A DNA stretch of 64,000 nt from Octopus vulgaris (lineage: Eukaryota), in assembly GCA_951406725.2 (NCBI GenBank), contig OX597815.1:169818001-169882000 (forward strand). Direction: 5' to 3'. The notes under the pieces are model-generated. The model did not search any database. It was not told where the DNA came from and was given only the letters and a program-made list of their open reading frames with translations. Position numbers and translations under genes: made by a program. Below are positions 2,805 through 42,788 of this stretch, piece by piece (position 1 is the first letter of the stretch; each line of letters opens with the position of its first letter).

Positions 2805-3285
2805 ATAACATAAGGGACTAAAGCCATCTGAATATGGCTAGGGACAGGGCAGGGTGGTGGGGGTGTTACTGTTGCATTTAGCCCCAGGCGAACATCGACG
2901 TCACCAGAAAGGCTCGACACCGTCACGGTGCCCTTAACCTGCAAAGGGAGGTAATTCCCCGATGAAGCGGAAACCACACACGGACCATGGTTTCAAGGTG
3001 TATTGCCTATCATCGGCGTGTGGTAGGCCTCCGCTTCCTCGACGAATTCTCACTCTGCAGGATTTTCTTATATAGATTTTCAAGCAAAATACATTTGCTG
3101 ATTTCGAAAATCTGTTCGAAAGCAATAATAATTCTCTAAAAGGGATATAGACAGTAACTGCTCGATAACATAAGGGACTAAAGCCATCTGAATATGGCTA
3201 GGGACAGGGCAGGGTGGTGGGGGTGTTACTGTTGCATTTAGCCCCAGGCGAACATCGACGTCACCAGAAAGGCTCGACATCGTCA
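2805..3285 (-). mobile_element. Retrozyme-like element: 360-bp unit plus 121-bp direct terminal repeat, inserted in (TA)n
   Basis: 2805-2925 repeats at 3165-3285 (period exactly 360, one mismatch). Flanked by (TA)n on both sides. No protein coding. Contains a hammerhead on the minus strand. Confidence 0.8.
2960..3041 (-). ncRNA. Type I hammerhead ribozyme with extended stem I
   Basis: Minus strand: GAAGCGGA..CACACG / CCGATGA / TAGG-CAATACA-CCTT / GAAAC-CATG-GTC / CGTGTG..TCCGCTTC. Predicted cleavage between 2983 and 2982. U4C and a U.U pair at the base of stem II may reduce activity. Confidence 0.75.
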
Positions 3286-8004: not shown

Positions 8005-8306
8005 ATAACATAAGGGACTAAAGCCATCTGAATATGGTTAGGGGCAGGGCAGGGTGGTGGGGGTGTTACTGTTGCATTTAGCCCCAGGCGAACATCAACG
8101 TCGCCAGATAGGCTTGAAACCATCACGGCGTCCTCTGAGGACGCCGTGATGGTTTCAAGCCTATCTGGCGACGTTGATGTTCGCCTGGGGCTAAATGCAA
8201 CAGTAACACCCCACCACCCTGCCCTGCCCCTAACCATATTCAGATGGCTTTAGTCCCTTATGTTATGGAACAGTTACTGTCTATATCTCATTTAGAGAAT
8301 TATTAT

Positions 8307-8310
<4 letters not shown>
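8005..8310. mobile_element. Fold-back (palindromic) copy of the 360-bp retrozyme-like family, lacking the ribozyme
   Basis: 8005-8135 and 8137-8266 are reverse complements (centre T8136, one 1-bp indel in the G/C run). The right arm continues into sequence matching 3122-3164. (TA)n on both flanks. Confidence 0.85.
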
Positions 8311-11360: not shown

Positions 11361-12067
11361 TGTATATAAAAAAAAACACCAACATACAGTCGTAATTTTT
11401 ATACACCGGTGGAAACATAGATATACACAAACATATATGCACTCGTATACACTGAAAAGGAGAAAGGAGTGGATTCGATCTAAATATTAAATAAAGAGAC
11501 ATTAATTGTATTAATATAAATACACTCACACATACACATACACATATATTAAATTACGAATACATACGTATGTAGATATATACATACATACGTACATACA
11601 TATATAGATATCTCTATATAAAAGGTGAGAGAAAGTAAGAGAGAGAGGGGCGAAGTGGAGAAAGAAAATGTAGATTAAATCTAGATATTAATTAACACGC
11701 ATACATACACGCACACACGCATGAGAGAGAGAGAGAAGACGAGAGCGAGAGAGAGAGAAAGAGAGAGGGAGGAGAGAGAAAGTGAGGTAATGAGAAAGGG
11801 TAAGCCAAAGAAGATCTAATTAAATAGTGTTACTTTATTATGAAATATTGATTTCATTTGTCTGACGAAATTTTCTTAGCATAAAAATCTTGTTTTTGTT
11901 AAGGGCAATCAAAGTAGAATACTGGGCGCTTATATCTTTGCCACTTAACTGATGTGAATTGACTTCAATGAAGAACTGAGTTTGCTTCGCTGTTTCGGCT
12001 TTCATGAAGTATGTACCTTACACTCTGAATTCGCCACTTTTATATAATGCAATATTTGTAGCTATTA

Positions 12068-12468
12068 AGGTGGCGAGCTGGCAGAAACGTTAACACGCTG
12101 GACGAAATGCTTAGCAGTATTTCGTCTGCCGTTACGTTTTGAGTTCAAATTCCGCCGAGGTCGACTTTGCCTTTCATCCTTTCGGGGTCGATAAATTAAG
12201 TATGAGTTATGCACTGGGGTCGATGTAATCGACTTAATCCGTTTGTCTGTCCTTGTTTGTCCTCTCTGTGTTTAGCCCCTCGTGAGTAGTAAAGAAATAG
12301 GTATTTCGTCTGCCTTTACATTCTGAGTTCAAATTCAGTCGAGGTCGACTTTACCTTTCATCCTTTCGCGGGTGATAAATTAAGTACCAGTTACGCACTG
12401 GAGTCGAGTTAATCGACTGGCCCCCTCACCCAAAATTTCGGGCCTTGTACCTTGAGTAGAAAAGAATA
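12068..12468 (+). mobile_element. SINE family A, partial dimer
   Basis: Full copy followed by a restart at ggtatttcgtctg (~12300). Confidence 0.85.
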
Positions 12469-24313: not shown

Positions 24314-24732
24314 ATTTATTTCTTGTTGCCCACAAGGGGCTAAACATAGAGGGGACAAACAAGTACAGGCATGGGGATTAAGTCGATTATATCGACGCCA
24401 GTGATTAACTGGTACTTATTTAATCGACCCCGAAAGGATGAAAGGCAAAGTCGATCTCGGCGGAATTTGAACTCAGAACGTAACGGCAGACGAAATACCT
24501 ATTTCTTTATTACCCACAAGGGGCTAAACATAGAGGGGACAAACAAGTACATACAAGGGGATTAAGTCGATTATATCGACCCCAGTGATTAACTGGTACT
24601 TATTTAATCGATCCCGAAAGGATGAAAGGCAAAGTCGACCTCGGCGGAATTTGAACTCAGAACGTAGCGGCAGACGAATTATCGCTAAGCATTCCGCCCG
24701 GCGTGCTAACATTTCTGCCAGCTCGCCGCCTT
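24314..24732 (-). mobile_element. SINE family A dimer
   Basis: Two tandem bodies. Probable TSD ctgtgacgttatatatt at ~24299 and ~24733. Confidence 0.9.
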
Positions 24733-28569: not shown

Positions 28570-29000
28570 CTTCTGATTTAGACGTGGCTAACAATTTTCA
28601 AGGAAGAGGTTAGTCGATTCCGTTGAATCCCGCACTTGACTGGTACTATATTTTAACGACTACAAAAGGATGAAATGGCAAAGCTGACCTCCGCGGAATT
28701 TGAACTTAAAACGTAAAGAACCAGAAGAAATACTGAAAAAAAAACCCCAAAACATTTTTTACGACGCTCTAACGATTTTCCAAGCCACCTTAAGAGAGAT
28801 GCTAGTCTCAAATTTTTGCAGAAGGTCATCAAGTTCGTGAATAAATTGATTACATCGACCCCAGTGTTCAACTGGTACATATTTTATTGACCACGAAAGG
28901 ATGAAAGGCAAAGTAGGCTTCGGTGGAATTTGAGCAGAGAAACTAAAAACGATCGAAGTGCTGCTAAGTATTTTACCCGGCGTGCTTATGATTCTGCCTT
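28570..29000 (-). mobile_element. Two diverged SINE family A copies
   Basis: aaaggatgaaa(t/g)gcaaag..ggaatttga core appears twice. Confidence 0.7.
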
Positions 29001-29016
29001 AAGAGAGAGATAGTAA

Positions 29017-29345
29017 CTGTGAAAATCCATATATATCCAGCCTGTAGAGGAAGTCCCTCAACGAAGAACGGTGCTTACCATGCGTTGATAAGAGGCAAAT
29101 ACCTCGAAACCGGTCCGTATGTAGTATCCGTATCTTCGGGGAGGCTGATCTCCCTTTGCAGGCTGGCAAGGACACCGAGATGGTGTCAGCCCTTCTGGTG
29201 ACGTTGATGATCGCCTGGGGCTAAATGCATCAGTAACACCCCCACTACCCCGCCCTGTACCTAGCCACATTCAGATGGCTGATCCTCCTTATGTTATAGA
29301 GCAGTTACTGTTTATATCTCGCTCAGAGATTTATTATTGTTGAGT
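29017..29345 (+). mobile_element. Divergent copy of the 360-bp retrozyme-like family
   Basis: Colinear with the reverse complement of the 2805-3165 unit, in a different circular permutation. Contains the hammerhead at 29062-29138. Confidence 0.8.
29062..29138 (+). ncRNA. Type I hammerhead ribozyme, U3-A8 core variant, extended stem I
   Basis: CGAAGA-ACGG..CATGCG / TTGATAA / GAGG-CAAATA-CCTC / GAAAC-CG-GTC / CGTATG..CCGT-A-TCTTCG. Predicted cleavage after 29115. Confidence 0.8.
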
Positions 29346-29705
29346 AACAAGGCTATTTAACGGGAAAACTAAGCCTAATTAAAATACTTGTTGAAGATTT
29401 TCTGATGACATTGAAGGAAAACAAATTTGTATTTACTAATAATATGCATTGTGGCGGCACATGGCCTAGTGGTTAGAGCAGCGGACTGAGTGAGATTTTA
29501 TTGTTGTTTGTAGCAGAGTGAGTGACCATGGGGGTGGTCTTACATATTGGTTCGTTCTTCAAGAGTTATTACAGTTGCCAAACATGCCATTAATCACTCA
29601 ATGATTGGAGTACCAAGTTTTGCATTAATTTTGGAGGACTAATACTATAATGGAGACAGCTAAATTTAAGATAAAACGGAATCCAAGGATGCTAGTATCT
29701 ATCTA

Positions 29706-31267: not shown

Positions 31268-31574
31268 ACGCTATTAAACACACAAAATATACAAAACTCA
31301 ACTACAATATCACATGAATATATAACCGGCGTTTATTTAGGTTAAACATTCTCTTGACGTTTTTGAATGAGGAATAAAACACTCACGCGCACTCGCACAC
31401 ACAAACACACATGAACGCATACACACACACATGCGCGCGCGCACTGCATTATCAAATCAAACAGCAAAAAATAATAATTCCAATAACAAACATCAACCAA
31501 GCCGTTATAAATGTCGCATTGTGGAGGAAGAGCACCGGTGGTGGCGGTGTGCTCGTCGCCGACGTGCTGTTGGT

Positions 31575-31632
31575 GTTTGTGGTGATGGTGATGATGATGA
31601 TGATGATGACGATGATGATGATGATGGTGATG

Positions 31633-31711
<79 letters not shown>

Positions 31712-31963
31712 CAGAGGAGATGGTGGTGGTGTCGGTGGCGGCTCATTTGCAGCTGAGGAATGAAGTAATGAGGCTTGTGTAAGTGTACGATGCTGGTGCT
31801 GATGATGGTAAAGACGACGACGATGATGATGGTGACGATGATGGTAATGAGAAATGCGATGATGACGATGATGATGTTGTTGATGATGTTGTTATTGTTG
31901 TGGTAGATGGTAACGTTGACGATGATGATGGTGATGATGATGATGGTGATGATGATGATGGTG

Positions 31964-31995
<32 letters not shown>

Positions 31996-32614
31996 GGTAA
32001 TAATGATGATGATGGTGGTGGTGATAGTGGTGGTAATGATGATGATAATGATGATGATAACGACGACGACGATGATGATGGTGAAGATGACAATAATGAT
32101 GATGTTATTGTTGATGATGATGATGATGATGATGATGGTGGTGGTGATGGTGGTGGCGATGATGATAACGACGGCGATGATGGTGATAATGAAAAATGAT
32201 CATGACGATAATGATGATGATGACGATGATGATGATGACGATGATGATGATGATGATGGTTGCCATGCTAAATATGAGTTCAATAATGATGAAGATGAGC
32301 GCAATATTGGTGTAGGCGGTATCGATGAATTGTCGTTATTTTTTTTCATGTTGTTACCTTTGTCGTGAAACGTGATGATGACGACAATAATAATGATGAT
32401 GATGATGATGATGATGAGAAAGAGGAGAAAGAAGAGGATGGTAATGATGATGATGATGATGAGAAAGAGGAGAAAGAAGAGGATGGTGATGATGATGATG
32501 ATAATAATGATGATGAATTGTTTAAAAAGATAAATAAAAATGAGGCAGTATTGTTGGTGTTGATGCTTGAAGGTGTTTCCTATTTTTGTTGTTGCTGTTG
32601 CTCACAATGATGGT

Positions 32615-32647
<33 letters not shown>

Positions 32648-32674
32648 GATGGTAATGATGATGACGACGACGAC

Positions 32675-32706
<32 letters not shown>

Positions 32707-32761
32707 CGATGATGATGACGATGATGATGATGGTGGTGGTGGTGGTGGTAGTGATGATGAC

Positions 32762-32795
<34 letters not shown>

Positions 32796-33468
32796 AGAAT
32801 GACGATGGTGATGATGATGATAGTGATGATGACGATAGTGATGATGATGACGATGATGATGACGACGACGATGACGACGACGATGATGATGATGATGATG
32901 ATAATGAAGATGACAACAACGATGACGATGATCATGACGACGACGATGGTAAAGATGATGATGATGATGATGATGATGATAATGACGATGGTGAAGATGA
33001 TGATGTTGATGATGATGAAGATGATGATTATGATGTAGATGATGATGATGATGATGATGATGGTGGTGATGAAGACGGTGGTGGTGTTGATTATGTGGTA
33101 TTGTAAGATCAGAGAACGAATGTATATACGGCGATGGCAGTGCTGAATAAATATTGAGGTTCTTGTGATGTTGTGGTTGTTGATCTTGTTGTTGTTGAAC
33201 GCCAGATCAGTCTCTATCCGTAACTTTCCCATCTTTTCATAGAATGTCTACCGTATCTGTATATTTAAGACGGTACAGAGTGTAGTCTGAGAGGAGAGGA
33301 GATTTTTGCTGCTCTTTCTAACAGATCGAATGACTGCGTTGAGGTTCTTCTCGTCGGTTCGATATTTGTAGTTATTTATGATGGTGGCGGTGGCGGAAGG
33401 CGCTGCTGCTGCTGCTGCTGCTGCAGCTGTGGATAACTTTGATAATGATGATGTTGATGTTGCTGCCC

Positions 33469-42407: not shown

Positions 42408-42788
42408 ATTTATTTCTTTATTGCCCATTGAGGGCTAAACACAGAGGGGACAAACAAGGATAGACGAAATACTTATTTAGTCGATCCTGAAAGGATGAAA
42501 GGCAAAATCGACCCCAGCGGAATTTAAACTCAGAACGTAACGGCAGACGAAATACCTATTTCTTTACTACCCACAAGGAGCTAAACACAGAGGGGACAAA
42601 CAAGGATAGACGAAGGGATTAAGTCAATTACATCGACCCCAGTGCATAACTGGTACTTATTTAGTCGATCCTGAAAGGATGAAAGGCAAAATCGACCTCG
42701 GCGGAATTTGAACTCAGAACGTAGCGGCAGACGAAATACTGCTAAGCATTTCGCCCGGCGTGCTAACGTTTCTGCCAGGTCACCACCC
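42408..42788 (-). mobile_element. SINE family A dimer
   Basis: Two bodies. Flanking repeat ctgtaggtatt at both ends (probable TSD). Confidence 0.85.

Follow-up and report, generated by a model that had tools for sequence, protein, structure and literature searches.

Insertions and hammerhead motifs in the window

The window analysed here is a 64,000-nt stretch of the Octopus vulgaris genome. A generic type I hammerhead scan of both strands detected exactly two sites, designated copy A and copy B, and a third insertion was found without a hammerhead (Table 1). The hammerhead of copy B was read directly as stem I CATGCG/CGTATG, core TTGATAA with U3 at 29085 and A8 at 29090, and stem II GAGG/CCTC with the loop CAAATA, followed by GAAA, CCGG and TC. 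The predicted cut falls after C 29115, in a GUC triplet. Beyond positions 3 and 8, U4, G5, A6, A9, G12 to A15.1, U16.1 and the G10.1-C11.1 pair were all intact; copy B has the conserved core with a 3-8 pair, as in the published U3-A8 variant.

Table 1. Retrozyme-like insertions in the window and the parts of their hammerheads
Feature	Position	Strand	Basis and remarks
Copy A, 1.3 units in tandem, youngest subfamily	2805..3285	-	(TA)n on flanks
Hammerhead motif of copy A	2977..3022	-	C3 (3016), C4 (3015), G8 (3011), U10.1·U11.1 (3009/2995), palindromic stem III; predicted cut after C 2983
Third insertion, two 3' fragments in inverted arrangement, no hammerhead	8005..8309	.	(TA)n on both sides; arms stop at the two 3' ends favoured in the family
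Copy B, single 5'-truncated unit of the 360-nt putative retrozyme, U3-A8/G10.1-C11.1 subfamily	29013..29342	+	261-nt query: 95-100% matches, many contigs
Long stem I extension enclosing the copy B hammerhead	29042..29162	+	Conserved 3-nt bulge 29076-78; fold z -6.4; both sides changed in all 4 proximal pairs
Type I hammerhead motif of copy B	29079..29121	+	Direct reading, pattern scan
Stem I of copy B	29079-84/29116-21		
Core of copy B	29085-91		
Stem II of copy B	29092-29105		
GAAA of copy B	29106-09		
Palindromic stem III of copy B	29109-14		

In copy A, direct reading gave stem I CACACG/CGTGTG, a stem III insert CCATGG and the core CCGATGA. The first-pass annotation of this DNA had described differences between the two copies in stem I, the distal helix and stem III, together with the TTGATAA core and U3-A8 pair of copy B, and our reading agreed on each. 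Stem I can be described more precisely as containing one true double change (C-G/U-A) and one A-U/G·U wobble, and the change in stem III, which is still palindromic, is a 2-nt indel. That annotation overlooked two features of copy A: position 4 is C rather than U, and stem II starts with U·U instead of G-C at 10.1-11.1. Copy A and its subfamily, with C4 and U·U, depart from the conserved hammerhead core, which has U4 and an R10.1-Y11.1 pair; natural precedents exist separately for C4 and for U·U at 10.1-11.1.

In both copies three helices surround the core, open at stem I, and the NUH triplet is GUC (GUU in one subfamily elsewhere in the genome). Predicted folding was far better for both hammerhead domains than for shuffled sequences (z of -6.4 and -6.9, equalled by none of 200 shuffles). 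The minimum-energy folds of both copies showed the long stem I, and the full active three-way junction was the minimum-energy fold in neither. The Rfam hammerhead models gave no match at E<=10 in 28900-29400, and no hammerhead was among the matches listed for the whole window (150 of 280).

The output of the repeat finder on the window was dominated by microsatellites. A dispersed repeat of about 350 nt, probably a SINE, was present in a dozen or so copies (28800-29000, 12067-12418, 24381-24732 and 42470-42787 among them), one of which lies directly upstream of copy B. A near-perfect, MITE-like hairpin of about 200 nt at 860-1061 was visible only through weak matches to miRNA models, and extended (GAT/GGT)n trinucleotide runs, strongly skewed in GC, occupy 31500-33000.

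The 360-nt repeat as a likely non-LTR retrozyme

We searched the genome (2.8 Gb, 227 contigs) with both copies. The 40 candidates with the highest scores, out of 1,781, contained 84 matches to copy B, and most of the full-length ones were 95-100% identical; copy A matched 125 places, dozens of them at 100% and often spaced by 360 nt. Matches of 261 nt at 100% identity lay on nine contigs (C1-C9), indicating dispersed and recently amplified copies. The tandem period of 360 nt, with one type I hammerhead per unit, fits the 150-400-nt range of retrozyme units. Within the units of two loci checked, no sense-strand ORF of at least 40 aa was present, and only antisense ORFs of 50 and 70 aa were seen. 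The earlier assignment to a retrozyme-type repeat is in line with these observations, and the repeat is likely to be a non-LTR retrozyme with a non-coding tandem unit of 360 nt and a predicted hammerhead in each unit.

The insertions are partial tandems, often flanked by (TA)n. An inverted part was found in 10 of the 14 complete subfamily-A loci and in 11 of 22 B loci, and insertions of subfamily A end preferentially at two 3' positions separated by 44 nt. Partial tandems, an inverted 5' copy, a 3' tail and a microsatellite target are described in PMC8557442 as hallmarks of Penelope-like elements (PLEs), and all were found here; for this and the other published reports, our comparisons refer to the parts of each text that were available. 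At L022:1463-3261 a B-type and a C4-type insertion adjoin with a (TA)n run between them, suggesting repeated use of one microsatellite target.

The non-LTR retrozymes described by Cervera and de la Peña (2020, PMC7229834) likewise consist of 300-400-nt tandem units with one type I hammerhead each, in thousands of copies, and share a short palindromic helix III suited to dimer cleavage. In one of them, HHR_Amex2 of the axolotl, helix II likewise starts with a U·U mismatch, yet the RNA cleaves, more effectively when dimeric. The GC content of the octopus monomers (47% in A, 48% in B) lies marginally above the descriptive trait of <45% stated there. The passages of that report compared here contain no U3-A8, U3·G8, C3·A8 or C4 cores and no subfamily succession, and neither the word 'octopus' nor 'cephalopod' occurs in its main text; its supplements may list such variants. 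A recent preprint (bioRxiv 10.64898/2026.07.22.740005) treats vertebrate retrozymes as PLE derivatives, the same element class with the same proposed mobiliser; its sample, as far as the available part shows, comprised 31 vertebrates, 3 insects and 1 anthozoan, examined with canonical and minimal descriptors.

Of 24 listed sequencing runs, 20 contained part of this DNA, and none is recorded as RNA. Four sequencing runs guessed to be RNA were considered, and in two of them, compared with a B dimer, a 387-390-nt contig was self-closing with a 360-nt period and letters of the A lineage. A circle, a tandem transcript and DNA would each explain such a contig equally well, and it was therefore not counted as evidence of circular RNA.

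Penelope-like elements and their hammerheads

Young, intact PLEs with reverse transcriptase (RT) and GIY-YIG domains are present in the genome (L294:244-5460, and also L291-L299), several copies being 97-99% identical. The element at L294 has a 781-aa frame of RT with a C-terminal GIY-YIG, an overlapping upstream frame of 479 aa that gave no Pfam match, and direct terminal repeats of 504 bp, and it sits in (TA)n. BLAST detected no homology of the retrozyme units to the terminal repeats in 46 GIY-YIG loci, which represent a small fraction of the 6,136 candidates (150 scored), and none of the 46 qualified as a partner element by a shared terminal repeat. The one substantial match at these loci was an old retrozyme copy between (TA)n runs. 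Relatedness of pLTR and retrozyme is reported in the above preprint, as far as its available text goes, but was not found in these 46 loci.

The terminal repeats of the PLEs contain hammerheads of their own. At L294:633, at L294:5346 and at 27 other GIY-YIG loci, we observed a minimal hammerhead, located in terminal repeats, whose core is U3-A8 and whose stem III is the palindrome CATG. Its stem II varied in a compensatory manner, and the reversed control gave 0 matches. These motifs resemble the minimal hammerheads of Schistosoma mansoni PLEs (Cervera and de la Peña 2014, PMC4209133), for which about 1,300 U3-A8 motifs with palindromic helix III and high sequence variability within the genome are described. 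Unlike those, the octopus retrozyme motif combines a complete, bulged stem I with a stem II of 4 bp, and lies in a non-coding tandem unit rather than in a PLE terminal repeat. Downstream of another PLE frame, at L300:4798-4845 and at L302 (- strand), a further minimal hammerhead combined C3-C4…G8 with U10.1·U11.1 (0 matches in the reversed control); this is the core combination of the youngest retrozyme subfamily. A different hammerhead at L279:11-60, with a U3-A8 core and A10.1-U11.1, possibly represents another retrozyme family.

Covariation of the helices

The first-pass annotation had taken the paired changes between copies A and B as indicating selection on RNA structure and at least two subfamilies. 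Alignment of further copies extended both points: the helices covary, and many more subfamilies were found. In a set of 60 natural copies, 93.9% of cells form standard pairs, compared with 80.3% in shuffles, and two-sided changes occurred in 16 of the 19 pairs, a level reached by 0 of 500 shuffles; slid controls paired at 27-49%. The set was picked by hand to span the subfamilies and its rows are related, so these values are given as support for structural selection and not as a p-value. The weakest pair was 10.1-11.1, unpaired in 27 of the 60 copies. The 3-nt bulge of stem I and the invariant columns of loop 2, the elements that would take part in a loop 1-loop 2 tertiary contact, were conserved in the alignment.

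Among the stem III inserts found at two or more loci (9 of 269 units were left unparsed), nine were perfect palindromes of 4, 6 or 8 nt, one was self-complementary with a G·U, and two were not palindromic, namely CCAG at 6 loci, probably a product of CpG decay, and CCTGG at 2. Repeated replacement of stem III by other palindromes is expected if two paired hammerheads cut (PMC4209133). The invariance of the catalytic columns in the trees was partly built in by the search pattern and was not counted as evidence. In 30 copies found by their flanks, without conditioning on the core, five carried one private change among G5, A6, A9 and G12 to A15.1, and no such change was shared.

Compensatory changes in stems I and II are also known across the hammerhead repeat copies of the Dolichopoda satellite pDo500 (PMC2837043). 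Unlike in the octopus retrozyme, C3 and G8 are nearly invariant in pDo500, being changed in 4 and 2 of 198 sequences, respectively.

History of the 3-8 pair

Genome-wide counts with exact patterns, which are lower bounds, include tandem units and gave 2-4 matches in reversed-pattern controls, yielded 3,955 cores: 1,398 Y3-C4, the commonest class, 1,101 U3-A8, 862 U3·G8, 545 C3-U4-G8 and 49 C3-U4·A8. By eye, 98 of the first 100 Y3-C4 matches listed were C3…G8, and 23 of the 49 C3-U4·A8 cores formed one subfamily at 18 sites, six others being unlike the family. In L001-L030, loci chosen for likeness to copy B and in part overlapping, all 45 core-covering matches keep U3 and A8, again by eye. U3 and A8 of copy B thus co-occur well beyond it and are not private to it; from the 1,101 cores, U3-A8 is a subfamily state, and the wobble U3·G8 is common. 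The strict Watson-Crick selection on 3-8 that the earlier description implied is at variance with U3·G8 in 862 of the 3,955 cores. In a CTAG subfamily (L153, L158 and L172), U3·G8 is accompanied by U17, giving a GUU site, and stem II is fully replaced.

Trees were built with columns 3, 4, 8, 10.1 and 11.1 masked. They were ladder-like and required 12 changes of the 3-8 state on 90 rows and 16 on 118 rows, against a minimum of 3 (35 of 222 units were left out as truncated, and 15 of these were restored in the 90-row tree, 5 whole and 10 without their upstream part). Copies A and B fell in one clade with 100/100 support, whose basal and sister rows are U3-A8. The C3-G8 of copy A is therefore the derived state, and the direction proposed at first, from C3-G8 to U3-A8, is reversed. 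Judging from the trees, U3-A8 would be ancestral to both window copies, provided that the root lies outside their clade. The ladder from U3-A8 (L063) through U3·G8 (L061 and L131) to C3C4-G8 had starred support values of 100/93, 100/97 and 98/93 in a tree that left out the long rows L185 and L230, and a single origin of C3 in the young clade was rejected (p-AU 1.6e-8). The tree topology suggests that the lineage of copy A passed through earlier switches between U-A and U·G and then from U3-A8 through U3·G8 to C3-C4-G8. If the root lies outside, C3-G8 would have been regained twice in the young clade, a sister lineage reaching the canonical C3-U4-G8 separately.

Median distances to the nearest other locus agree with a root outside the clade, being 0.004-0.020 for most classes inside it and 0.017-0.058 outside; these come from small samples of 2-19 loci per class, in which at least two units are mislabelled and from which L001-L060 were left out as biased. 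The deep root is unreliable because of long branches and divergent relatives as outgroup. The most divergent relatives sampled are mostly C3-G8, and a full cycle of the 3-8 pair from C-G back to C-G is plausible on these trees.

C3·A8 was considered as a forward intermediate from U-A to C-G and is not put forward as one: its support in that position was 82/42 in the 90-row tree, and a later tree did not resolve it. In a finer tree, whose alignment included some flanking columns, the C3·A8 copies fell within the C3 clade but were weakly supported there (a topology keeping C3-G8 together had AU p=0.19), and the subfamily may be a side branch formed by a change of G8 to A. Phylogenetically independent pairs, too few for a significant outcome, gave no significant covariation of position 3 with position 8 (4 pairs, median p 0.5). 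Position 8 changed 14 times and position 7 changed 18 times, both among the most changeable columns, and since C7-G8 is a CpG, mutation bias may drive part of this change.

Discussion

Sequence comparison makes it probable that the repeat carries a working, rate-tolerant retrozyme hammerhead whose 3-8 pair has changed repeatedly between subfamilies. Multimeric retrozyme RNA would be cut at GUC by paired, dimeric hammerheads, would pass through a circular RNA intermediate and would be reinserted by the enzymes of a PLE, and successive master elements would give rise to the subfamilies. Selection would retain the catalytic residues and helices and would require modest cleavage only, so that U-A, U·G and C-G would all work at 3-8 and C·A would be tolerated rarely. 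Weakening changes, such as C4 or a mismatched 10.1-11.1, would leave amplification going. Points against this reading are the non-significant test of position 3 with position 8, the possible CpG bias, the unreliable deep root, the lack of homology to PLE terminal repeats in the 46 loci and the missing Rfam match. The kinetics of swaps at 3-8 were reportedly studied by Przybilski and Hammann in 2007.

A more selective account, which overlaps this reading and which we hold only tentatively, is that attenuation itself has been favoured. Slow ribozymes would leave long multimers or circles intact for reverse transcription, favouring weakened cores (C4, U·G or a mismatched 10.1-11.1); alternatively, C4 with a non-Watson-Crick 10.1-11.1 would form a compensated core. 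The subfamily with C4 and U10.1·U11.1, which by eye comprised about 84 of the first 100 C4 matches listed, is the youngest, with a median nearest-locus distance of 0.004 compared with 0.019 for B, and has longer insertions (1.6-5.1 units compared with 0.9-2.6), which favours attenuation. C4 also recurs with C10.1·A11.1 in an older retrozyme lineage and with U·U in a PLE minimal hammerhead, and this recurrence suggests that attenuation is tolerated or favoured, or that position 4 interacts epistatically with the base of stem II. However, the association of C4 with C3 or with the 10.1-11.1 mismatch was not significant (6 independent pairs, p>=0.25), the canonical C3-U4-G8/G-C subfamily is nearly as young (0.009), two copies (L096 and L110) carry C4 on a G10.1-C11.1 background, and array length may simply reflect youth. 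The boldest form of this account seems doubtful to us. It holds that deliberately slow hammerheads win, C4 and a broken 10.1-11.1 having arisen at least three times (in two retrozyme lineages and one Penelope element) as a tuned or compensated core, while the 3-8 pair would have cycled from C-G to U-A, U·G and C-G through mobile wobble or mismatch intermediates that mutagenesis scores as nearly dead.

It is unlikely that cleavage has become obsolete, with the fold maintained for binding by the mobilising enzyme or a host protein, while positions 3, 4, 7 and 8 drift by transition and CpG mutation. The subfamily-level changes at 3, 4 and 8 are indeed all transitions, the CCAG inserts show decay of the CpG type, and canonical hammerheads are lacking in some PLE clades that nevertheless spread (PMC8557442). 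When the CUGA region of one type III hammerhead was mutated singly and pairwise, activity was low in every mutant other than the G3-C8 swap (PMC9901934); this would put U3-A8, U3·G8, C3·A8 and C4 among the low-activity cores, and it counts against the rate-tolerant reading as well. Against drift, the unpaired catalytic residues show private changes only in the 30 unconditioned copies, and the palindromic stem III and NUH triplet have outlasted many replacements. The 49 C3·A8 cores compare with several hundred expected if the two sites were independent, a comparison in which the copies themselves are not independent, and octopus repeats are reported to be barely methylated (PMC9476566). The notion that copy B is dead, that its U3 and A8 arose by private decay and that chance produced the paired changes can be dismissed: both changes are transitions and copy B is 5'-truncated, but U3-A8 is found in over a thousand cores, identical hammerheads lie on many contigs and the helices covary.

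Returning to the rate-tolerant hammerhead, the element class, natural U3-A8 hammerheads (PMC3088659, 2011; PMC4209133) and U·U at 10.1-11.1 are already known. Perreault et al. (2011, PMC3088659) describe natural covariation between C3-G8 and U3-A8 and a mismatched U10.1·U11.1; they cite in vitro activity for U3-A8 and a viroid hammerhead with U4C that is viable despite being weak in vitro. In the available part of that report the variants are rare single examples, whereas octopus subfamilies numbering from tens to over a thousand copies have C4, U3·G8 and, at 10.1-11.1, U·U or C·A as fixed states, and their order can be inferred. Our literature search, which covered openly accessible main texts, found no report of amplified U3·G8, C3·A8 or C4 retrozyme cores, nor of an ordered series in one genome, and 'hammerhead ribozyme' was absent among the matches listed for the cephalopod literature.

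Most accounts of compensatory evolution are deduced from end points, but in this case intermediates of the 3-8 pair survive as ordered subfamilies, in hundreds of copies within one genome. This tertiary pair adjoins the general acid G8, and each intermediate passed retrotransposition as a fitness test. The subfamilies constitute a natural allelic series for epistasis in a ribozyme core, with U-A, U·G, C·A and C-G at 3-8, presence or absence of C4, and G-C, G·U, U·U or C·A at 10.1-11.1, and permit a test of the role of the hammerhead in PLE and retrozyme transposition. As 545 of the 3,955 counted cores are canonical, searches with the CUGANGA pattern would overlook about 86% of them, and animal retrozymes are therefore likely to be undercounted. 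The successive waves of subfamilies likely preserve a stepwise record of the evolution of the ribozyme core.
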